From the IMG/VR virus record IMGVR_UViG_2740892258_000013: a DNA stretch of 28,905 bases; one strand, given 5' to 3'. Both the position numbers and the translations under genes were made by a program. Positions 1 through 12,399 of this stretch are shown one piece after another (within the stretch, counting starts at the first letter, position 1; the number at the start of each line of letters is the position of its first letter). A model generated the notes under the pieces. The model was not told where the DNA came from, ran no database searches, and saw only the letters and a program-made list of their open reading frames with translations. Source of the DNA: a virus. Lineage: Duplodnaviria > Heunggongvirae > Uroviricota > Caudoviricetes.

Positions 1-1158
1 ATGCTCACCGTTAAGCAGATTGAAGCAGCAAAGCCGAAAGAAAAACCATACCGCCTACTCGATGGTAATGGCCTGTACCTTTATGTCCCTGTATCAGGGA
101 AAAAGGTATGGCAGCTTCGCTACAAGATTGACGGTAAGGAGAAAATCCTGACCGTCGGAAAATATCCACTTATGACTTTGCAGGAGGCAAGAGATAAAGC
201 ATGGACCGCGAGGAAAGACATCTCGGTTGGCATCGATCCGGTAAAAGCGAAAAAGGCTTCGTCTAACAACAATTCCTTTAGTGCGATTTACAAGGAATGG
301 TACGAGCACAAGAAGCAAGTCTGGTCAGTAGGCTATGCAACTGAACTTGCAAAAATGTTTGATGACGACATTTTACCTATCATCGGCGGCCTTGAAATTC
401 AGGATATTGAGCCGATGCAACTGCTGGAAGTAATCCGCAGATTTGAAGATCGCGGTGCAATGGAGCGAGCCAACAAAGCCCGCAGAAGATGCGGCGAGGT
501 TTTCCGTTACGCTATTGTCACTGGTAGGGCTAAATATAACCCGGCACCTGACCTTGCTGACGCCATGAAGGGATACCGCAAGAAGAACTTCCCGTTTCTT
601 CCTGCAGACCAGATCCCTGCATTCAACAAAGCACTGGCAACATTTTCAGGAAGTATCGTATCGCTCATTGCGACCAAAGTTTTACGCTACACAGCCCTAA
701 GAACGAAAGAGCTTCGTTCCATGCTATGGAAGAACGTCGATTTTGAAAACAGGATTATCACCATCGACGCCAGTGTGATGAAGGGACGCAAAATTCATGT
801 GGTCCCGATGTCAGACCAGGTGGTTGAACTTCTCACTACGCTAAGCTCCATCACCAAACCAGTATCAGAGTTTGTTTTTGCCGGGCGCAACGATAAGAAG
901 AAGCCAATCTGCGAGAACGCGGTTCTACTTGTGATCAAACAAATCGGCTATGAGGGTCTAGAAAGCGGTCACGGATTCAGGCATGAATTCAGCACGATTA
1001 TGAACGAGCACGAATGGCCTGCTGACGCTATTGAAGTGCAACTGGCACATGCCAACGGCGGATCTGTGCGCGGTATTTACAACCATGCTCAGTATCTCGA
1101 TAAGCGCAGAGAAATGATGCAGTGGTGGGCGGATTGGCTTGATGAGAAGGTAGAGTGA
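1..1158 (+). CDS. int: Phage integrase, tyrosine recombinase family
   Basis: 385-aa ORF starting at base 1. N-terminal arm-type motif AAKPKEKPYRLLDGNGLYLYV, catalytic-domain motif HGFRH and a C-terminal Tyr region (VRGIYNHAQY). The true start could lie at or just upstream of the window edge. Confidence 0.9.
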   Translation: MLTVKQIEAAKPKEKPYRLLDGNGLYLYVPVSGKKVWQLRYKIDGKEKILTVGKYPLMTLQEARDKAWTARKDISVGIDPVKAKKASSNNNSFSAIYKEWYEHKKQVWSVGYATELAKMFDDDILPIIGGLEIQDIEPMQLLEVIRRFEDRGAMERANKARRRCGEVFRYAIVTGRAKYNPAPDLADAMKGYRKKNFPFLPADQIPAFNKALATFSGSIVSLIATKVLRYTALRTKELRSMLWKNVDFENRIITIDASVMKGRKIHVVPMSDQVVELLTTLSSITKPVSEFVFAGRNDKKKPICENAVLLVIKQIGYEGLESGHGFRHEFSTIMNEHEWPADAIEVQLAHANGGSVRGIYNHAQYLDKRREMMQWWADWLDEKVE

Positions 1159-1397
1159 TCCGCCTTAACAACTATCGAAGAGCACAAAGCCTTGTGTGTC
1201 TCATAGGCTATGAAACAATCATTTTACATGGTTACTTCACTACTTCCGCACAATATGATATCGTTCACAATCTAAAAACATTAATAATTTATCCATTACC
1301 GCGGTTAATGCCCGTCGCTTCCAACGGGCTTTTTTGTAAATTATATTTTTATTACCTTATATTAATATTGGTAATATGTCTGCATGATGTTTTATAT
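1159..1397. other. AT-rich int/neuO intergenic region, candidate attP
   Basis: Lies between the convergent 3' ends of int and neuO, where P22/Sf6-type phages carry attP between the O-antigen-modification moron and int. No tRNA-derived core could be recognised by eye, so the position is inferred from gene order only. Confidence 0.25.
1310..1337 (+). terminator. Rho-independent terminator downstream of int
   Basis: Perfect 6-bp stem GCCCGT/ACGGGC with an 8-nt loop, followed by TTTTTTGT on the plus strand. Confidence 0.55.
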
Positions 1398-2111
1398 TTA
1401 TTGCGTGAGCTTCGCATGATAGCTGGAGCATCTCTTGTCATCACTAATTAGCTCCGCTTTATCCGTTCTTGCCCATATTATATTTCTTTTTATTATTTTT
1501 GCTGGATTACCGGCTGCTGCACACATAGATGGCACATCTTTAGTTACAATACTCCCATACCCAATGACAGATCCGCTTCCAACAGATACTCCTTTCATTA
1601 TAGAGACATTTCTCCCTACCCATACGTAACTAGATATAATGATATCTTTTGCCCAATTAATCCTTTTTTTGCTATGAATATCAAATATAGGATGCCCATC
1701 TGATGCACGCAAAATAACATCTCTTGCTATCATGCAGTCATGGCCAATTGTAACATTGCACTTATCAGTGACGACTTCAAAACCTGCACCTATTGTCGTT
1801 CTTCTACCGATAATAACTTTTGAACCTTTTGTTGCGACAATATCACCTTTAATCTTACTGTTTTTATGTATTCTTACGTAATTATTATCACCCCTAAATA
1901 TTACGGTAAGCCATCGACACTCAACATCATCTTCTATAATAAGTTTGTTATTGTTTCCATTGAACTGAACTTTATTCTCTTTGCTATTTACAAGATCTCC
2001 ACATACAAAAACATTACCTGACCCATTATCATCAACGGAAAACGAGTCTTGAGTCTTGAGTCTTGAGTCTTGAGTCTTGAGTCTTGAGTCTTGAGTCTTG
2101 AGTCTTAACAT
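1398..2111 (-). CDS. neuO: Hexapeptide-repeat O-acetyltransferase (polysialic acid O-acetyltransferase NeuO-like), phase-variable
   Basis: 237-aa ORF with left-handed beta-helix acetyltransferase signatures (IGRRTTIGAGFEV, GVSVGSGSVIGYGSIV). The N-terminus is (RLKTQDS)x3, encoded by 9 tandem AAGACTC heptads right after ATGTT. AGGA Shine-Dalgarno 7 nt upstream of the ATG. Sits in the moron position next to the tailspike, as described for CUS-3 (recalled). Confidence 0.85.
   Translation of the reverse strand: MLRLKTQDSRLKTQDSRLKTQDSFSVDDNGSGNVFVCGDLVNSKENKVQFNGNNNKLIIEDDVECRWLTVIFRGDNNYVRIHKNSKIKGDIVATKGSKVIIGRRTTIGAGFEVVTDKCNVTIGHDCMIARDVILRASDGHPIFDIHSKKRINWAKDIIISSYVWVGRNVSIMKGVSVGSGSVIGYGSIVTKDVPSMCAAAGNPAKIIKRNIIWARTDKAELISDDKRCSSYHAKLTQ
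2044..2106 (-). repeat. Heptanucleotide VNTR, 9 perfect copies of GAGTCTT (AAGACTC on the coding strand)
   Basis: Counted directly: 9 x 7 = 63 nt inside the neuO 5' coding region, keeping the ORF in frame. Confidence 0.95.
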
Positions 2112-2308
2112 ATTAGTATCCTACGTTATTTTACCACTAGTTACTTTTCTTGTCATTAAAAAGCATTTAAATTTTTATATTTAATTTCGTTGACGTCAAT
2201 GTTTTTTGCCAATGTACTTACTTCTTTATGTGATCAGTTCATATTTTTGACGCCAACGAAACATTTAGTGCTTCCCTTCTATTAAGTCTAACCTAGCTTT
2301 TATTCTTT

Positions 2309-3307
2309 CTATTTCTCTGCGCTGCCATGCTGCCTCGATATAGAATAAGAGATCAGGTCTGACCCCATTTCTCTGCGCTGCCATGCTGCCTCGATATAGA
2401 ATAAGAGATCAGGTCTGACCCCCCATCTAGATCCTGCTGGCGTTATTTCAACGCGCTCAATGATGTCTTCTATTACCATCACTGGATTATCATCCTCATC
2501 AACAATGATGCTCCCGTCATTATCAGTCAGCGGCATTTCCCTTTGGCCAGTAATGACGTCATCATATACTGCGGGATAATCGTCATAGCAAAGAAAGGCA
2601 TAGCGGCATGTTGTGCTTTCTTCTTCCATGAGTCCGTGAGAAATAAGAACATCACGAAGTTGCTGCGCGATTACACCATGATGTATCCTCGCCCCTTCTT
2701 CCCCCTTTATAGCGACAGCGTTCAGCCATTTATAAGCGATATACCTGACGTCACCCCAGGCATCCAGCAATGTTTCGTCAGGAGAGACCGGCTCTGTCTT
2801 TAATGTTCCGTCACTGGTAACCACAGGATTGGAGCCAAGATAAACTATCGAGAACCTGTTTCCCGGACCACCAAGAGCATTTACATTATCAAGATAAGGT
2901 TTAACATCTCCGTTCTCAAAAAGATGTTCGAGTGCGTTATATACCGCGCGACGTGGAGTACTGCTTCCGGAACCATGCAACGTTATCATTGCACCATCTG
3001 CTGAAGACGTTGTTTCACCGCCGCTAACGATTAATCTCTGAGCGGTAACATCATCAGACGGTACTTTCTTCGCAATAATGGCGTAATTACCCTCAAGTTT
3101 GACTTCCGCGCGAACTTGTCCTGATGTACCTGCATGGACAGTCAGTGACTGGACGGCAACATCATCTGTGAAATCAACGGGTACAGGAACCGTCCTCACG
3201 CCTGACGTCGACATAAAAGTAGGAAGCGTTCTGTTAGGAGTGGCTCCGTAGACAAAATCCCTTGAAACAAATTCTTCCTGTTTAATTTTCACCCTGAAAC
3301 AATACAA
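2309..3307 (-). CDS. Tailspike fragment: C-terminal stalk and chaperone-like region
   Basis: 332-aa ORF. Its C-terminus is altered by the 56-bp duplication at 2311-2422. Confidence 0.7.
   Translation of the reverse strand: MYCFRVKIKQEEFVSRDFVYGATPNRTLPTFMSTSGVRTVPVPVDFTDDVAVQSLTVHAGTSGQVRAEVKLEGNYAIIAKKVPSDDVTAQRLIVSGGETTSSADGAMITLHGSGSSTPRRAVYNALEHLFENGDVKPYLDNVNALGGPGNRFSIVYLGSNPVVTSDGTLKTEPVSPDETLLDAWGDVRYIAYKWLNAVAIKGEEGARIHHGVIAQQLRDVLISHGLMEEESTTCRYAFLCYDDYPAVYDDVITGQREMPLTDNDGSIIVDEDDNPVMVIEDIIERVEITPAGSRWGVRPDLLFYIEAAWQRREMGSDLISYSISRQHGSAEK
2311..2422. repeat. Exact tandem duplication, 2 x 56 bp (tailspike 3' end)
   Basis: Copy 1 is 2311-2366 and copy 2 is 2367-2422, identical by direct reading. 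56 is not a multiple of 3, so it shifts the frame. Confidence 0.95.
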
Positions 3308-3443
3308 ATCAGCCGGGTGACCATCGTGAACATAAGGATATTTTCTGTTGTTATCCCCTATGCTCCATGGGTTTAGAAAGTCTTCCCCACCGAAAATGTA
3401 GTACAGCCAGTTGTCTTTGATACAAACTGAACCAACACCAACC

Positions 3444-3555
3444 GCAGAGTTAACTATTCCGCCCTGATAAATCTGATCAGTAACATTAACCCACTCTACG
3501 CAGAGTTAACTATTCCGCCCTGATAAATCTGATCAGTAACATTAACCCACTCTAC
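3444..3555. repeat. Exact tandem duplication, 2 x 56 bp (tailspike)
   Basis: Copy 1 is 3444-3499 and copy 2 is 3500-3555, identical by direct reading. Confidence 0.95.
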
Positions 3556-3590
3556 ATTATCCAGACTCCACTCATTGACGTTAACTCTGG

Positions 3591-4766
3591 TCATAAATGT
3601 TCTTGGATAATTTCCTGCATAACGGTTATCAGGTTCTCCTCCTTCCCACTCACCAAATGCGCGCTCTTTCCTGCATAACGGTTATCAGGTTCTCCTCCTT
3701 CCCACTCACCAAATGCGCGCTCACTGCCAAAAATAATCAGCTCATCGCCAACTTTGGCAAAAGGAAGGTTTGAGTGATGAACATTATTTGGGAAGCGAAG
3801 AGAATTCCATGATGTACCTAAATCAGAGCTTCTGTGCAATGAACTACCGGGTTGAGTACTTAATGTCCCCCTGGTCGTCAGATACAGAATGCCATCATAA
3901 TATTTTACACATGGCTCAGATGCATTCGCCTCATATTCTGCAGGTATGCGTCTGCGAACAAAGCTACCAGGAGAACCGAAAGCATCAGAGAAATAGAGTA
4001 TCCCAAGCTCGCGTGGACCAATATCACCATTATGGTAGCCAACAGCAAAACTGTTATCGCTAATCGTCGCAAAACTGTGAATCTCAGTAACAGGAGTGCT
4101 TCCGTCAACAAAAGAAGGAATAGTTCCAAGACTGGTTTTTCTCCATGGTGACGAGTGAAATGATGTACCAAAACTCCAGTATCTACCCTCGTTATTCTGA
4201 TCCACATCCTGGGTATTTTGCGTCGTAACTGTAAAAGTATTTTTATCAATAACAGTAGTCACCGTCATATTCCCGGTAACACCTGTAACACCAGAGTTTG
4301 AGAAGTTGACAAAATCACCAGCAAATAATCCGTGATCAGTAATGCGAATATAAGCGACTTGCTGATTTGCTGCTTTCGTTATACCACCATAAACGCGAAG
4401 GCTGCGACTCATTGGGCGATCCCACAACTCTGCAACCTGCAGTTTATTTCCGCTCACGGTCCGCGTCTCAATTACAGCAAAAAGGCGATTTCTGACAACC
4501 CCCATACTCATGCAGTGATAGTTAACTGTGGGATAGTTTTCATGTAAATCTGTAAGCCATTCCGGCGTTGTCCAGGTCTTCCCGTCATCTCCTGAGCGAA
4601 CCCATGCAACATGGAGGTTATTTACACCATGGCGGTCTCCAGCCATAAAAGGCGCATAGATGACATTGTCATATACAAACGTTTTATCCTGCGTCCAGGC
4701 GTTGTACCACGGTGTATCTGTAATTTTAAATAACTCTCCCTGGATAAAATCTTCAGAATGTACCAC
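3591..4766 (-). CDS. Tailspike fragment: endosialidase catalytic (sialidase beta-propeller-like) region
   Basis: 391-aa ORF. Its first 19 residues duplicate the end of the upstream fragment (4622-4921) because of the 56-bp duplication at 4703-4814. Confidence 0.75.
   Translation of the reverse strand: MVHSEDFIQGELFKITDTPWYNAWTQDKTFVYDNVIYAPFMAGDRHGVNNLHVAWVRSGDDGKTWTTPEWLTDLHENYPTVNYHCMSMGVVRNRLFAVIETRTVSGNKLQVAELWDRPMSRSLRVYGGITKAANQQVAYIRITDHGLFAGDFVNFSNSGVTGVTGNMTVTTVIDKNTFTVTTQNTQDVDQNNEGRYWSFGTSFHSSPWRKTSLGTIPSFVDGSTPVTEIHSFATISDNSFAVGYHNGDIGPRELGILYFSDAFGSPGSFVRRRIPAEYEANASEPCVKYYDGILYLTTRGTLSTQPGSSLHRSSDLGTSWNSLRFPNNVHHSNLPFAKVGDELIIFGSERAFGEWEGGEPDNRYAGKSAHLVSGKEENLITVMQEIIQEHL
3611..3722. 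repeat. Exact tandem duplication, 2 x 56 bp (tailspike)
   Basis: Copy 1 is 3611-3666 and copy 2 is 3667-3722, identical by direct reading. Confidence 0.95.
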
Positions 4767-4814
4767 GGTGTATCTGTAATTTTAAATAACTCTCCCTGGA
4801 TAAAATCTTCAGAA
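4703..4814. repeat. Exact tandem duplication, 2 x 56 bp (tailspike)
   Basis: Copy 1 is 4703-4758 and copy 2 is 4759-4814, identical by direct reading. Confidence 0.95.
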
Positions 4815-4865
4815 ACATAAAAAAGAGGCTGACCCGGTATTCTCTCAAATAAAAAACGAGCATTT

Positions 4866-5435
4866 TTAAATCGACTGACATCTGGAAGATGTTGATACTT
4901 TAAAAGTAAGCCCTCGCCCATCTATCTTTTCACCACCTGTTGCAACAGAAAGTAATTCTGATAGAGCTGATGTATCATCATGAACACCATCACCAATAGC
5001 CCCCCAACCTCTTACATCATAACTGTCTCTCCATCTTGCTATCTGAAGTTTTGGGTATTTATTCGCTCCATCTGTGTCTTCTAATTGCTGCCGTAACTGA
5101 TCAGGATCATACTTCAGCACATTAGGAAAATAGAACTGCTGCGCACCATACGCATCATAAACAGCCATAGAATGGCCTTGCACGGTAACGAATTTGGCAA
5201 TCTGTCCGTTATATACCGGATATCCAGCAGCGTTAATGATTATTGGTTGCGAAACAGGAACGTGAGAACCGTCTTCATTCTCCACATAGACCTGAATCTG
5301 GTTTTCTGTATTTACAGGATCAGTGTCAATTTTACCGATATAAATTTTGCCATTGGCTACGGCTTTAAAAGAACGCGCCATAGTGAAGAGTTGCGAAGGC
5401 ATCGATACGATCACATTGGCTGTAATGTCTGTCAT
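4866..5435 (-). CDS. Tailspike fragment 1: P22 gp9-like head-binding domain plus start of the receptor-binding part
   Basis: 189-aa ORF, GGAG Shine-Dalgarno upstream; ends at a frameshift-induced stop. Confidence 0.8.
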
Positions 5436-5492
5436 TTAATTTGCTCCAGATACAAGGAATCGCCGAAGCATGGCTACGGTGAATTTTGGGCA

Positions 5493-5517
5493 TAAAAAAA
5501 CCCAGCCGAAGCTGGGT
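5493..5517 (-). terminator. Rho-independent terminator after ant, upstream of the tailspike gene
   Basis: On the minus strand: stem ACCCAGC/GCTGGGT with a 4-nt loop, followed by TTTTTTTATG. Confidence 0.65.
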
Positions 5518-5535
5518 CGTTGCGTTGGTTATCTA

Positions 5536-6459
5536 TCAGTAGTTATGTACTGAAGGAGGTAATTCTTTATTCTTAAGTCTCATCCATGCGGAAAGATTCG
5601 TTGGTCCGTCTGGCTCATTAATATCAACATCTCGTGTATGGTTGATTAAAACATCTCTCGCCATTCCGATAACATACGAGAATTCATGACCGTAGTCGTA
5701 GCATCTGCCGGAATAGTTCGATTGAATTTGTTTTAGCGCCTGATACAGTTCGCGGAATAATGCCTGTGAGCGGTTGGCATAATCCCATAGCCATACAAGG
5801 CTGTTTACTTCTTTTGCAGAAAGCTCGTTGGTTTTCTTCTCTTGTTTGCCAATGAACTCACCTTCAAGTGGAACTCGAGCTGCAAGTGATAGTGCTTCGG
5901 TAAACTGCTCCTCACTGATTTCTTTGTACGAACATCCAAAATGGGATTTCAGTGACGACCACATGGTGATCATCGCCTTAGCCTGTTTTTCTTTTGGCAG
6001 AGACTGACCGCGACTCATGACGAGTTGTTTAATGGCTTCCTGCTGTTCAGTGGTGATTTTACCCTGCAACGCCTTTTTAGCTTTGCGTGGGTTAACTACA
6101 TGGCCTTTAGTCCAGTACTCGTAGAGCACATCGTCACACTCTTCCTGATACTGGATTACCTTGTCGCGGATTTCAGGGCGGACTTTGTTAGGACTGATGC
6201 TGTTCAACCAAGCTGCCAATTTTCGTAAAGCCATACAAATCATGGCTTGCACCCCACCGGCAGAAGGTATGGTGATTTCCACCATACCATTCGAGAATCG
6301 TTGAGAAATCTTCTTATGTTGAGATTTCCAGTCTAGCCCCATTCCCTCAACGATAGGTTTCATTGGGGTATACGGTTCGCCGTTGTGATTGACAACATAA
6401 AGCTCTGCGCCGTGGAATGGTACATTGATAGTAGATACTGCTGTTGCTATACTTTTCAT
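5536..6459 (-). CDS. ant: Antirepressor (Ant-like)
   Basis: 307-aa ORF immediately downstream of arc in the immI-like region. The N-terminal motif VPFHGAELYVVNHNGEPYTP resembles the P22 antirepressor N-terminal domain family (recalled). Confidence 0.65.
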   Translation of the reverse strand: MKSIATAVSTINVPFHGAELYVVNHNGEPYTPMKPIVEGMGLDWKSQHKKISQRFSNGMVEITIPSAGGVQAMICMALRKLAAWLNSISPNKVRPEIRDKVIQYQEECDDVLYEYWTKGHVVNPRKAKKALQGKITTEQQEAIKQLVMSRGQSLPKEKQAKAMITMWSSLKSHFGCSYKEISEEQFTEALSLAARVPLEGEFIGKQEKKTNELSAKEVNSLVWLWDYANRSQALFRELYQALKQIQSNYSGRCYDYGHEFSYVIGMARDVLINHTRDVDINEPDGPTNLSAWMRLKNKELPPSVHNY

Positions 6460-6522
6460 GTCGTTAATTCCTATGCGTGGTTTTACGATACCGAAGCCCT
6501 GACTGTTCCCGCAGTTGGGGCT

Positions 6523-6726
6523 TCAACTTTCTGCTCTATCAGTTATATCTTTCCCTTCGTATACTTCACCTATATTGCTAATGCTGGCAGAACATCCAAG
6601 ATGCTTGTATCTTATGATGTCCAACACGCAGTCACTACACAGCATCCGACCTGTTTCTTTAGAGTAAATGTATGTTTGATCAGCGTCTGATTCGCTAATG
6701 CCGCAGAAACAACATTCTTTACTCAT
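6523..6726 (-). CDS. Small Cys-rich (zinc-ribbon-like) protein of unknown function
   Basis: 67-aa ORF with CCFC and CSDC motifs. Its ATG overlaps the arc stop (ATGA), suggesting translational coupling in an arc-orf-ant operon. Confidence 0.5.
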   Translation of the reverse strand: MSKECCFCGISESDADQTYIYSKETGRMLCSDCVLDIIRYKHLGCSASISNIGEVYEGKDITDRAES

Positions 6727-6863
6727 ACCATCACCCCCTCTCTCTTCAAGCTGTCCAGCACCCGTTTAATTACTTCTGCGCTAAACGATCGACACTCTTC
6801 CTTTGCTTTCTCTTCAAGGATTTTTTCTAACTTCTCTGGCATACGCAGTGTTTTTACCTTCAT
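6723..6863 (-). CDS. arc: Arc-like ribbon-helix-helix repressor
   Basis: The internal Met of ORF 6723-6929 (MKVKTLRMPEKLEKILEEKAKEECRSFSAEV...) is preceded by a GGAGG Shine-Dalgarno. RHH-like N-terminus in the P22 arc position. Confidence 0.6.
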   Translation of the reverse strand: MKVKTLRMPEKLEKILEEKAKEECRSFSAEVIKRVLDSLKREGVMV

Positions 6864-6968
6864 TGCATCCTCCGCTGTATGTGGTACGCATACATAGTAT
6901 TTAGGTACGCATTGATAGTCAATAGACACCTACATATCCTGTGGTAAAAAATTATTCAGGGTGTGCCG
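6864..6968. promoter_or_regulatory. Divergent promoter/operator region between arc and the plus-strand RHH-mnt genes
   Basis: 105-bp intergenic gap between divergent RHH genes. Direct repeat GGTACGCAT at 6883-6891 and 6904-6912 (21-bp spacing). Exact promoters and operators are not defined. Confidence 0.35.
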
Positions 6969-7226
6969 ATGTCTGATCGTAAGTACAAAAACCCTCAAGT
7001 GAATCTGAGGCTTCCTGTAGAGATAAAGGAACGTCTTATTGAACTGGCTGAGGCTAATTCTCGTTCATTAAATGCTGAGATGGTCGCTGCACTTGAAGCA
7101 TGGACCGAAAAAAATAAACACATTCAAGCACTAGACCTTGCAACTATAGCATCACGATTGATAGATCTTGAACATGATGTTGAGAAGTTGAAATGCATGT
7201 ATGGCAACAATAAAGACGAAAGTTAG
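6969..7226 (+). CDS. Ribbon-helix-helix (Arc/Mnt-like) DNA-binding protein, extra paralog
   Basis: N-terminus NPQVNLRLPVEIKERLIELAEANSRSLNAEMVAALEAW fits the RHH fold and has a C-terminal extension. ATG at 6969 is preceded by AGGG; the ORF track starts at a GTG at 6963. Confidence 0.6.
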   Translation: MSDRKYKNPQVNLRLPVEIKERLIELAEANSRSLNAEMVAALEAWTEKNKHIQALDLATIASRLIDLEHDVEKLKCMYGNNKDES

Positions 7227-7249
7227 AGATACTAACTTGGAGTGATGGC

Positions 7250-7498
7250 ATGGCTAGAGATGATCCGCACTTTAACTTCCGTATGCCTTTGGAAGTAAGA
7301 GAAAAATTGAAATTAAGAGCCGAGGCTAACGGAAGGTCAATGAACTCTGAGTTATTACAAATCGTTCAGGATGCGCTATCAAAACCATCACCGATTGCAG
7401 GTTACCGTGACGAAGCAGAACGTATGGCTGATCAGCAAGCAGAAATTGTTAAGAAGATGGTGTTTGAAACCCTGAAAAAAATGTACGAGACCAGATAG
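7250..7498 (+). CDS. mnt: Mnt repressor
   Basis: 82-aa ORF, near-identical to my recollection of P22 Mnt (MARDDPHFNFRMP.EVREKLK.RAEANGRSMNSELLQIVQDALSKPSP...). GGAG Shine-Dalgarno upstream. Confidence 0.9.
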   Translation: MARDDPHFNFRMPLEVREKLKLRAEANGRSMNSELLQIVQDALSKPSPIAGYRDEAERMADQQAEIVKKMVFETLKKMYETR

Positions 7499-7540
7499 GT
7501 CAATGTTTGTTCGTTGATATAAAATAACAAGGTATACATT

Positions 7541-8140
7541 GTGATTGAGATAGGCGTTATGGCCATCCTGAATCAAGAGCCAGGAAAAATTGAAAACGTT
7601 TTTTCTGACATATCAACATCTATCGAGCGTTCAATTTCAGACTTTGATCGCAGTCATAGCGGCTCTTTGTCTAAAAAACAGGCTTCTGAAGCTCTTAGCA
7701 AGATCTACTGCGTTATGTCACCTGTAGAGGAAGTTTGCAAAAAGTACATTACATTCATTGACATATTAAGTAATGGTACAGAAGAAGATATTTCCTCACT
7801 TAATATTCAACATGACGATGTAGATATGTTGAACGATCAGATATCTAAGCTTGATTATGGTATCGCGAAACTGTTGTATACCTTCTTCATCGCTGAGAAC
7901 AGCGATGCGTGGAAGCCCCATATGTCAACTCTTACAACAATGAAAAACCACTCAATCAATACTTTTATAGAATACAAAAGGCTAACAATGGGGCTTGTGA
8001 CGCTAGCAATGCAGCACATACCACTATCATATGCTGAACCTGAAGAGTTCACTGAAGAAGAGTTGGCTTCCTTCAAGAAATCAGTTGAAGATTCACATAA
8101 AAGATTTGGCATGGAAGCACCAAAATGGAAAACCGCATAA
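7541..8140 (+). CDS. Hypothetical acidic protein, first gene of the AT-rich cassette
   Basis: 199-aa ORF with a GTG start (alternative ATG at 7559). No recognisable motifs. Overlaps the next gene by 16 nt. Confidence 0.5.
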   Translation: MIEIGVMAILNQEPGKIENVFSDISTSIERSISDFDRSHSGSLSKKQASEALSKIYCVMSPVEEVCKKYITFIDILSNGTEEDISSLNIQHDDVDMLNDQISKLDYGIAKLLYTFFIAENSDAWKPHMSTLTTMKNHSINTFIEYKRLTMGLVTLAMQHIPLSYAEPEEFTEEELASFKKSVEDSHKRFGMEAPKWKTA

Positions 8141-8544
8141 GCATTGTTGTAGATGCAGCGGCTGGACCATTAGAACAATACTTTGCGAAGGCTCTTGCAA
8201 ACTACAAAAACAGAGGCACCGTTTCAGCTTATCTTGGTAAGATTGGTGGGTTTGAGAGAAACCATCACGCCGTCTTATCGGGAATTTACAAGTCGCACAT
8301 CAGGATCCCTGGAGTAGATGATCCTTGGTTAAGAACAACGCCAATACATCGTAGAGTTAGCGATAACTTTTTGATATTTGCGGTACACAACACATATCCA
8401 ATTCATATCCAGATCATTGCTATCATTAAACCTGATGGTCATGAGAAGGTAAAAAAACTATTGCCAGCCATCATTGATATAACTGAAAAAAGATTCCAAT
8501 CTCTAAATGAGAGGGAGCTTAACTCGTTGATTTCATACAAATAA
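8125..8544 (+). CDS. YafO-family toxin-like protein (putative ribosome-dependent mRNA interferase)
   Basis: 139-aa ORF. Motifs FERNHHAVL and IIAIIKPDGHEK resemble E. coli YafO (FERVAHIHL, LLIAILKPEPHK) as recalled from memory. The function is a hypothesis. Confidence 0.5.
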   Translation: MENRISIVVDAAAGPLEQYFAKALANYKNRGTVSAYLGKIGGFERNHHAVLSGIYKSHIRIPGVDDPWLRTTPIHRRVSDNFLIFAVHNTYPIHIQIIAIIKPDGHEKVKKLLPAIIDITEKRFQSLNERELNSLISYK

Positions 8545-8566
8545 AATATCAACTAAGGGGGTTGGT

Positions 8567-8890
8567 GTGTATACAACAGTTATCGCGATAGCTATCGCAC
8601 TCATTGTGGTTCAGTACCAACTGGCATCTTTAAAACAAAAGATATCTGACCTCAAGACTGAGAACGAAGCACTTAAAAACTCAATAAAAGATGAGAAGAA
8701 CAAACTATCATTCACTATATCTGATATTGAGCAATCCATTGAAATTATTGAGAATAATATTAACAGATTAAAAAAAGAAGATATTCATGAAATCAATGAC
8801 AATATCAAGGATTTGAAATCTTGGCTTAGGAATGTAGGACAAATCGCCACATCAACACGAGATAAGCTCAATACATCCATGGATGATTAA
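8567..8890 (+). CDS. Small membrane protein with N-terminal transmembrane helix and coiled coil
   Basis: 107-aa ORF with a GTG start preceded by a strong AAGGGGG Shine-Dalgarno. Hydrophobic N-terminus (YTTVIAIAIALIVVQY) followed by heptad-like charged sequence. Its stop abuts the convergent gp16 stop. Confidence 0.6.
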   Translation: MYTTVIAIAIALIVVQYQLASLKQKISDLKTENEALKNSIKDEKNKLSFTISDIEQSIEIIENNINRLKKEDIHEINDNIKDLKSWLRNVGQIATSTRDKLNTSMDD

Positions 8891-11050
8891 TTACTCCTGT
8901 GCCATTCCGCTTAGCGACGCTACAATGCCAGCCCTCGCTAAGCGATTGAACTCTTCGTTTCCAACTGCATCGCGTATTGCTTTTACGGCGGCTTTATTTG
9001 CCATAAATCTGCGTTCCGCCGCCGCTAATGCTTCTTTACTTCCGCCAGCTCTTACTGCTTTCGTGGCTTCCTGAACTGCTTTCTCTATCGCATACCGACC
9101 ACTACGTGTGGTGGCAATTTTAGATACAGCACCTTTTAGCCCGGCGCCAACTAAAGCACCTGCGGCAGCGCCTGCAATGCCCCCTCCTGCTCCACCAACA
9201 ATGGCACCTGATGTTGAATTGGCAATTGCATTTAACACTGTTGATGTGACGTTGGATAAACCGGCATCCAGATCGCGTAGTACATTGGCAGTTCTCCCTG
9301 TTCTTTCAATATACTGCTGAGGTTTCACTGCTGCTCTTGCAAGAGTGCCATATGCATCTGCAATTCTTCCAAGCTCTGAGGAATATCGGCTAATGGCTTT
9401 TACATTTTGTGGAGTGAGTATCTCTGCGATATGGTTAATTCCTGCTGCATCAGCTTTACCACCACGTACACCATGCGAGATAGCATCTTGCAACATTGAT
9501 GATATAGCAGGAACACGCTCTGATTCTGGCAGCGCGCGGATCATAGAATGGAATCCAGCAGGACCATTAAGACCTTTAGCTGACGATGATTGAAGGGATT
9601 TTACTCCATTCGTAATCAGTGCATCTGTTGCCAAATCACGCCCGAAAACAGACTCTGCACTCTCTTGTGCTGATAACCTCGCTTTAGACAGATCATTAGC
9701 TTTTTGCCAGTCATCAAGAAATCCGCCGTTTTCCGCCATTGTGCGCATATCATCAGTAATTGCCCGGCGTATTTCCCCTGCTCTCCTTGCCGCATTTGCC
9801 TCTCCGCTACGCTTATATTTTTGCTCCGCATCAGCAAATTTCGCTCTCCATGCTTTCATGCCGTCAAATGTTACTCCACCTTGATTGTTTGCCTGAACAA
9901 ACTGTTTCATTTCAGGAGTAAGCGGTATGCCGGCAGATCGCTCTGCCTGAATAACGGCATTACCATTTAGCATTCTTGCTTTTTGATTTGGCATTGTTGA
10001 CCGCACGTCATCCCATGCCGCGCGCTCGGCATCCTTCATCTGATCAAGATTTTGAAGAATCCTTTGTTTTATAGCCGCACTTTTTTCTGATGCCGTTCCA
10101 GATGCGGCCCCAAATTCATCAAGGTTTCGACTTAACTTTGATGATATTTCGTTAAATGCTGCCTGATGGGCGTCCTGAACAATTCCTGGTGTTGATGCCA
10201 ATGCGCCTTCGGCTTGTGCAATTCCACGACTTCCAGATCGCATTCCTGGTGTTAATGCGTTTATATCAATTCCAGCAGACTCAGCCGCTTTTGCTACATC
10301 TTCGGACACATTAGCGGCCTGACTGGCAATTGACTGACGCCCAGCACCTGACTTTGCCATCCTAGAAACATCATTAGCAGAATTCAGTGCTGCACCACCA
10401 AGAGCCTGTGAAACCCTTGGCGCAATAACGCGCCCGACACCTGAAAGAACGCCTTGAGCACCAATATTGATACCACCGTTAATGGCAGCATTTTGTGCAA
10501 AGTCGCCCTCCTGATTTGCAGCATCAGCAAGAGAACCTGCAATCATGTTTCCGGCGGAACCGATATCTCCAGCGAGCTTTGCTGTCGCTCCAGCAGCTTT
10601 TGCCGCTGTGCCAATTGGCAGGAGATACCCACCAATTGTTTCACCGGCTTGCGCGTAAGGGTCTGTCGGTCGCTCGGCAGGGCGATAAACATCATCCAAA
10701 ACCTTGGGGCCGCCAAGCCCCTGGCTGATTGCATTAATCAGACTTGCGCCACCCTGCAATACGTCAAATGGTATGTTTACCAGACCACGACCAGCCTGTT
10801 CTGCAATTTGCCCTGCACTTTGACCACCTGTGAGCCAATCACCAGCTTGTTGCATCAATGATGGTTCTTCTTTCTGCTGCTGAGGCGGAGGGTATGCTGC
10901 ATAAAACTGATCTCTTGCTTCAGCCCATTTGTCACCAGCCTTAGGGGCAACAACCTCATCAAAATATTGCGCTTGAGCCTGTGCTTTCTGTTCTTCAGTT
11001 AACGCCTGATACTGTGGAGAAGCGATAACATCTTTCCATGCTTTAGCCAT
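8891..11050 (-). CDS. Ejection (internal virion) protein, P22 gp16-like
   Basis: 719-aa Ala/Gly-rich ORF in the gp16 position at the end of the late operon. Overlaps the gp20 stop (TAATG). Confidence 0.8.
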
Positions 11051-12399
11051 TAATCACCCCATAAAGACGAGAAACCGGACTTATTGCTGTCGCTTCCTGA
11101 TTTTCGCTCACTAACATATGTGTCATAACCTGATGAACTATATCCCATTGATTCAGCCTCCCTTGCTGCAACCTTTTGAAATACAGAATATTGCGATCGG
11201 ATTTCAGATAACTGTTTTCTGACGACCTCTTCAGGCTGTGTTATATCGAGTTTCGCGATCAGGTTTTCCAGTTTTTGGCCTTCAGCATTGGAGAGGCTCC
11301 CCATACCTCGCATAATCTGCACGTTCTGGACAAACGCACCCGACTTTAATTCTTCTATCGCATTACGGTTTGCAAGCCCTTCAGCACTTGTGAAGCCATC
11401 TATATTTCTTCCTTCGAAGCGACCGATACCTTCAAGCTCCTTCTTACCAAGCAAAGAATCTATTTTCTCTATCCCTCGCTCACCAGTAATCAACGCATTG
11501 TTGTAATTATTGTTGCCATCAAGCCATCTCTTAGCCTGAGACATTCTGGCTGACGTTGCAGCTTTACCGGTTAGAGGATCAATTCCCGTCGCTGCTATCT
11601 GTGAGTTAAGAGACAAAACATCCATATCCTGAAGTTGTCCTGCTCTTTCAAGGGCCGCCTGTGACTGCTTAAACACATACTTGTCGTGATTCAGTCTTGC
11701 CATTTGAGCCTTATAGGAAAGATCCTGCCCCCTAATAGCCCTCGCATTCGTCATGTCATTATTGCGAATGGTTTCGTTAATTCTTTGCTGCTCCTGCTGG
11801 CGACCAACCATCTTGTCCTGAACAGCAAACGCCTTTTCTGGTCCAAGCGCACCGAGAGACATAGTAGTCAGCATGTGTGATAGCTGCTCTGGATTCTGGA
11901 TACCTGTCTGAATCATCCAATCAGCATTCGCCCCCACGCGATTTAACCTGTCCTTGTTGTCAGTAATGAATTTACTGTAGGCTTCCGGTCCCTGAGAAAG
12001 AGCGACGTTAGCCCTCATGGCTAAATCGCCCATATCGTTGCGTTGCTGCTCATTAAGACCGGAAAATGCCTGTTGTGCCTGCGCAACAAACGCTGGATTT
12101 TCCTTGGCAAACTTAAATAGTCCCGATGGATCACCAGAAGCCCATGCATCAGCATGAACCTTATTGAACGCATTAATCGCTTTCTGTTGCTGGTCCTGCT
12201 TATAAATATCAGCAACTCCAGCCAGACCACGTAACGCGGTCAGACCAACGTTATTTGCACCTGATTGAGCCAGTTCATTGTTTTCGCGGATCAGACCAAG
12301 CGTTGCGTTAATGTCGCTTGCCTTTGGCGCATTCTCATTTTGCGCACCAATTCCAGCCAGAAAACCACCAGAATTAATACCCTGTTGCCACGTAGCCAT
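11050..12399 (-). CDS. Ejection protein, P22 gp20-like
   Basis: 449-aa ORF placed between gp7 and gp16, assigned by synteny. Confidence 0.75.

Follow-up and report, generated by a model that had tools for sequence, protein, structure and literature searches.

A single-base insertion in the endosialidase tailspike gene siaK1 of a CUS-3-type prophage of Escherichia coli K1, set among assembly artefacts

Results and Discussion

The endosialidase tailspike gene siaK1 carries one extra A at position 4890 of the window, which is the whole 28,905-nt stretch of DNA that was analysed. The probability that this A is a genuine and vertically inherited insertion, and that the four duplications and three SNPs found in the same gene are artefacts of an assembly at k=57, is put at about 0.9. 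The lesion is of an ordinary and already annotated kind, a lineage-specific +1 insertion which makes a pseudogene of the CUS-3 tailspike.

The window covers the part of a CUS-3-type, P22-like E. coli K1 prophage that lies next to argW. It starts with the integrase gene (1-1158, plus strand), which is followed on the minus strand by the neuO ORF (1398-2111). The neuO gene encodes the phase-variable capsule O-acetyltransferase and contains a GAGTCTT heptamer tract at 2044-2106. The siaK1 pseudogene, a CUS-3-type endosialidase tailspike gene, occupies 5435..2265 on the minus strand as assembled, and its 3171 nt are the sum of 2946 + 1 + 4x56. Beyond it lie ant, the Arc/Mnt regulators and genes for injection proteins, head and lysis. 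The siaK1 gene of CUS-3 (ABQ88383, 981 aa) and the tailspike gene of UTI89 (WP_000129909) are likewise flanked by ant and neuO, next to int and argW, and have the same five-domain architecture. The window copy differs from them by the extra A, the duplications and alleles derived from a paralogue. Positions 1-11,435 of the window are 100% identical to contig CVOH01000123.1 of the draft GCA_001245225.1, which is the window's own source. The match to the RefSeq genome of N21, a CSF isolate, is 100.000% on both sides of the tailspike region, for 24,147 nt on the upstream side and 2,106 nt on the downstream side. There is also a YafO-family toxin gene in the window (8125-8544, plus strand), annotated as such in N21 and UTI89. 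A 199-aa ORF without a known function (7541-8140, plus strand) lies upstream of it and overlaps it, and both are located between the Arc/Mnt regulators and the genes for injection proteins.

The inserted base

Alignment with CUS-3 (CP000711) and UTI89 places the extra A between gene nt 545 and 546 of siaK1; since the gene is on the minus strand, the base reads as T on the plus strand. Codon 182 is changed from ACT to ACA T. The intact genes read AAA GTA TCA ACT CTT CCA GAT (K V S T L P D) at this point, and the window reads AAA GTA TCA ACA TCT TCC AGA. The original prediction had expected a small net +1 indel within about 4870-4900 and had left its exact position to an alignment with intact CUS-3-type tailspike genes, which now narrows it to exactly one A. 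The base falls within ACATCTTCC, the sequence that had been named as the site, and its placement is unambiguous because the flanking bases are C and T and form no repeat. The gene is otherwise 99.9% identical at the DNA level to siaK1 of CP000711 and to the UTI89 tailspike gene. Without the four 56-bp duplications its length is 2947 nt compared with 2946 nt for the intact gene, which agrees with the predicted length of one nucleotide more than a multiple of 3. The further proposal of a single-base insertion is borne out as well: among 158 complete genomes with the site, 156 are without the A.

The first ORF runs from 5435 to 4866 on the minus strand and ends with TAA at 4868-4866, exactly where it had been predicted to stop. 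It encodes 189 aa, of which 182 are native and the last 7 (SSRCQSI) are out of frame. The continuation was correctly placed in the +1 frame with a stop just upstream. This stop is a TAG at 4924-4922, directly followed by a +1-frame ATG at 4921-4919, and both frames are open for 53 nt (4869..4921, minus strand). The +1-frame ORF (4622..4921, minus strand) continues the endosialidase reading (LPDVSRF...) through positions 28-67 of the End_N_terminal profile; in the assembled sequence, the first artefactual duplication truncates it.

Occurrence of the insertion

The same insertion is present in the RefSeq genomes of N21 (ACYX5F_RS07920) and N54 (ACYX5E_RS07740), where the NCBI pipeline labels the gene as 'frameshifted'. 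The exact 189-aa product was called on 17 contigs. Those from NCBI are GCA_001245225 (the source of the window), GCA_964041655.1 (a 5.06-Mb contig) and GCA_963590765.1; others come from the ENA metagenome ERZ28603331 and from the Logan assemblies ERR10101547, ERR11508991, ERR11509614 and SRR30348695. All of the carrier contigs that were compared show the insertion in the same place (ins1@545:A), so that it is common to N21, N54 and loci L006-L013. It is absent from CUS-3, from UTI89 and from a 1039-aa paralogue of siaK1 that is described below. The allele is rare, with only two carriers among the 158 complete E. coli genomes that have the 61-nt site, and the exact frameshift sequence had no match in a scan of IMG/VR viral contigs. 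The flanks are 100% identical among carriers, and by this measure the carriers are consistent with one clone. N21, N54 and other assemblies have the insertion without any of the duplications, which upholds the claim that the two are independent.

It is very unlikely that the extra A arose as an error of sequencing or assembly in the GCA_001245225 draft alone. The same gene in this draft does contain assembly artefacts, in the form of four untrimmed overlaps and a chimeric consensus, and the site lies within the region that is homologous to the paralogue (nt 522-2914). However, both RefSeq chromosomes have the identical insertion, and so do two more NCBI assemblies, one metagenome scaffold and four Logan assemblies, which differ in assembler and in k (k=31). 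The site is no homopolymer. The paralogue does not have the A, therefore mixing of the two copies cannot create it. In addition, the k-mers over the site are unique owing to differences from the paralogue at nt 552, which is 6 nt downstream, and at a position 24 nt upstream.

The genuine insertion also does not have the appearance of a phase-variable locus, since the indel falls in no homopolymer or short tandem repeat (flanks CAAC[A]TCTT). In this respect the site differs from neuO with its heptamer tract at 2044-2106.

The paralogue and the assembly artefacts

Many K1 strains, including N21 (WP_000218919), N54, IHE3034 (ADE90020) and APEC O18, have a second endosialidase gene, which is intact and encodes 1039 aa. 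In N21 this gene is at chromosome positions 1406710-1409829 (4102-7221 of locus L016), and it is also present in loci L014 and L015. It resembles siaK1 in having 99.5% DNA identity over nt 522-2914 and the same catalytic, stalk and chaperone domains. Unlike siaK1 of the window, it has a non-P22 N-terminal part of about 200 aa, is intact and is without the extra A. The two genes differ at nt 552, 603, 620, 1713, 1936, 2299, 2420, 2494, 2796 and from 2901 onwards. The paralogue belongs to a prophage other than the CUS-3 type, in which it lies beside holin and GH19 lysis genes. A YafO-family toxin gene is found just upstream of the endosialidase gene in this other prophage as well. Gene conversion from the paralogue could in principle repair the CUS-3 copy; no sign of it was seen.

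Four exact 56-bp tandem duplications were detected with TRF, all of them inside siaK1 and none elsewhere in the window. The original prediction had set them aside as a separate biological event, a view which does not hold, since they abut differences from the paralogue and coincide with k=57 nodes. Duplication 1 (4703..4814, minus strand; unit nt 621-676) starts right after T620C at an in-branch node, where the assembly enters the two-copy repeat. Duplication 2 (3611..3722, minus strand; unit nt 1657-1712) abuts C1713T (window 3610) at an out-branch node just before a bubble. Duplication 3 (3443..3555, minus strand; unit nt 1768-1823) comes right after the AT of nt 1766-1767 (window 3557-3556) at an in-branch node just after the bubble. 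Duplication 4 (2311..2422, minus strand; unit nt 2845-2900) ends before A2901G at an out-branch node, where the assembly leaves the two-copy repeat.

The bubble arm itself spans 167 nt (56+55+56; 3500..3666, minus strand) and carries the paralogue alleles T1713 (3610) and AT1766-7 (3557-3556), which are mis-placed in the CUS-3 copy. Two further paralogue alleles, A2299G at 2968 and G2796A at 2471 (2471..2968, minus strand), lie within a collapsed mosaic segment. Thus all three SNPs that seem to be private to the window (C1713T, A2299G and G2796A) are alleles of the 1039-aa paralogue. The siaK1 genes of N21 and N54 are without the AT at nt 1766-7, whereas the window has it, on the mis-placed paralogue arm.

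A de Bruijn simulation at k=57 was run on the two endosialidase loci of N21, and its branch nodes include exactly the four duplicated 56-mers. Further nodes of the simulation fall at simple SNP bubbles; there the window has a mixture of alleles, which merging of the bubbles would be expected to produce. Other assemblies likewise break where their k would predict, at nt 582 (552 + 30) for the Logan contigs with k=31 and at nt 675 (620 + 55) for the GCA_963590765 contig, with its 55-nt overlap. The first duplication is in none of the complete E. coli genomes, as all matches listed with full coverage align there in two pieces. None of the four duplications is present in any reference that was aligned over the whole gene. 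The duplications are untrimmed k-1 contig overlaps (56 nt) at repeat branch points, and gene nt 621-2900 of the window is a collapsed chimera. Since this part is chimeric, the real sequence of the CUS-3 copy is not readable there from the window. The position of duplication 3 implies that the real CUS-3 copy of the strain departs from the paralogue at nt 1766/7, most likely by the AT deletion of the N21 type.

Three other readings of these features were considered and rejected. The SNPs at 3610, 2968 and 2471 might be taken together with the duplications as an excess of mutations that marks a hot spot or selection; all three SNPs are paralogue alleles. The sum of the insertion and one duplication (+1 + 56 = 57) would restore the frame after duplication 1, as if by a compensating event; the duplication is artefactual and the stop at 4868-4866 intervenes. 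Finally, the Logan contigs that end at a T6 run (nt 582) could point to an IS insertion or to a homopolymer of varying length; in the k=31 simulation the paralogue accounts for where they end.

The assembly also limits what can be said about neuO. Its AAGACTC/GAGTCTT tract (2044-2106) is 63 nt long, which is 9 copies and equal to 57 + 6, and the number of heptamer copies elsewhere is about 44 in N21, 19 in CUS-3 and about 20 in UTI89. Any longer tract made up of whole copies would come out of a k=57 graph at 63 nt, therefore the in-frame 'ON' state of neuO in the window is unreliable.

Effect on the tailspike protein

The 189-aa fragment contains a Pfam Head_binding domain (PF09008) at aa 1-113 (E = 3.6e-67), which matches head-binding fragments in the PDB. 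Domain mapping with Pfam on the intact UTI89 protein gives End_N_terminal (146-212), the propeller (213-662, including a barrel insert at 324-406), the stalk (663-817) and the S74 chaperone (Peptidase_S74, 818-878). The N-extension, the beta-propeller with its barrel insert, the stalk and the S74 chaperone are all present downstream of the insertion at the DNA level (99.9% identity to CP000711). Precomputed Pfam hits are also recorded on the window's own siaK1 fragments.

Codon 182 corresponds to position 37 of the 67 positions of the End_N_terminal profile. Residue 145/146 of the siaK1 protein is where the crystal structures of endosialidase NF start, which puts the frameshift 37 residues into the crystallised fragment. 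At the DNA level it is 24 nt downstream of the start of homology with other endosialidase genes (nt 522). The site had been described as lying between the head-binding and endosialidase domains; this has to be corrected, since Head_binding already ends at aa 113 and the break falls in the middle of End_N_terminal (146-212) and in no inter-domain linker.

The uninterrupted frame of about 981 codons is absent from the window copy, being broken at codon 182 by the extra A. The insertion shifts the frame at this codon and leads to a stop 7 codons later, leaving the 189-aa stub. The stub has the complete head-binding domain and 37 of the 67 End_N_terminal positions, and is without the catalytic propeller, the stalk and the C-terminal chaperone. 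Judged from its sequence, siaK1 is here a pseudogene of the P22-like endosialidase tailspike family and no functional member of it. The prophage would be unable to make a tailspike that degrades the K1 capsule. In P22, tailspikes are needed for adsorption. By analogy with P22 biology, the prophage is probably also unable to make infectious K1-specific virions. The cargo gene neuO remains.

Improbable readings: a programmed frameshift or two working proteins

A full-length tailspike would be restored if ribosomes underwent a programmed +1 shift within 4921-4869. The original prediction had called this possible but unsupported; that judgement holds, and there is evidence against such a shift: the insertion is not conserved, there is no motif, the RNA folds less stably than shuffled sequence and further lesions follow downstream. 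In its favour, both frames are open over the 53 nt in question, and a rare AGA codon comes shortly after the insertion. However, in 156 of 158 genomes the protein is encoded in a single frame, which means that the shift is not conserved. A manual codon-by-codon reading of 4921-4869 found no X XXY YYZ heptamer in register and no CUU/UUU-stop +1 motif, and neither UCC-AGA nor AUU-UAA allows re-pairing in the P site. A stimulatory RNA structure was not found in 4925-4790, where the predicted fold of -21 kcal/mol is less stable than that of shuffled sequences (-28.0 kcal/mol, z = +2.07). Any restored product would still be destroyed by the nonsense and frameshift lesions that the carriers have downstream. 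Programmed frameshifting is thus extremely improbable.

The gene could also be split into two working proteins, a 189-aa head-binding adaptor and a soluble endosialidase that starts from the ATG at 4921. An arrangement of adaptor plus enzyme occurs in phages K1E and K1-5. The SD-like sequence GGTGGTGA (4937-4930, minus strand) is 8 nt upstream of the in-frame ATG, and together the two might conceivably allow translation to reinitiate there. P22-type head-binding domains are stable alone and have been solved as fragments (1LKT, 2VNL), which would fit a free-standing adaptor. On the other hand, the break is in the middle of End_N_terminal and not at a domain boundary, the enzyme would have no surface by which to bind to the stub, and the downstream ORF is broken again in every carrier that is readable to the gene end. 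Two functional products are accordingly most improbable, and the insertion is best regarded as inactivating.

Further lesions and decay of the prophage

Every carrier that can be read to the gene end has a second lesion downstream of the insertion. N21, N54 and L007 have the deletion of AT at nt 1766-7, and L008, L011 and L012 have the nonsense mutation C675A, which changes TAC to TAA. The downstream ORFs are broken into 421 + 398 aa in the N21 type and into 53 + 737 aa in the C675A type. The 421-aa ORF of the N21 type is without the stalk and the chaperone. The insertion may have been the first hit, followed by further decay in different sub-lineages, the order being one that we infer. C675A is found both with the extra A (L008) and without it (L018), therefore either recombination between alleles or recurrent mutation is needed. 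The flanks of L008, L011 and L012 are identical to those of L018, and the order of the mutations cannot be read from them.

CUS-3-like prophages are prone to decay, and the tail and coat genes are annotated as pseudogenes in many isolates in which neuO is kept (Connolly et al. 2022, PMC9659370). The locus in the window fits this pattern, although that paper describes neither the A insertion nor recurrent IS insertions in siaK1. The neuO gene has been reported in 43.5% of K1 genomes (PMC13001214).

Possible selection for tailspike loss

Other K1 isolates have different disruptions of siaK1. IS insertions were found in L017-L025 at about nt 349-358, 431-433, 485-487, 511-516, 589-595 and 635-640, and a lookup of the 737-aa C-terminal remnant showed that C675A also occurs alone. 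The IS insertions and nonsense changes cluster within the first 700 nt of siaK1 (about nt 349-675), in a sample that was found through the remnant lookup and is biased by it. A sample spread over complete genomes contains CE10 (+1 nt), FY26 (IS3), M15 (IS903B) and truncated remnants, in about 11 informative rows, which are too few for a rate.

The frameshift might on this evidence be one among numerous CUS-3 tailspike knock-outs under positive selection, by which the prophage is grounded or the host's own capsule is spared while neuO is kept. The many independent disruptions (IS elements at six or more sites, C675A, CE10, FY26 and M15) point in this direction, as does the presence of the 737-aa remnant on 109 contigs compared with 406 for the commonest intact protein, counts that carry the bias of how the remnant sample was found. 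However, other CUS-3 genes have also been reported as pseudogenes (PMC9659370), and part of the apparent excess of changes in the window's siaK1 is artefact. Positive selection is unlikely to be the explanation. A more specific form, in which convergent knock-outs are favoured because lysogens keep neuO and release no capsule-stripping virions, and in which the 189-aa stub might even cap tails in a dominant-negative manner, is doubtful indeed. A plain inactivating insertion inherited within a lineage remains the preferred reading.

Conclusions

The tailspike gene of GCA_001245225.1 looks spectacularly broken, yet only the single-base insertion is real and the rest results from the collapse of near-identical endosialidase genes. 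Studies that score the integrity of CUS-3 or the phase of neuO from short-read assemblies must allow for paralogue collapse and for repeat counts that are limited by k-mer length. The insertion itself is biologically minor: it adds one more inactivating mutation to a prophage whose decay has been described before, and two RefSeq genomes already carry a flag for it.
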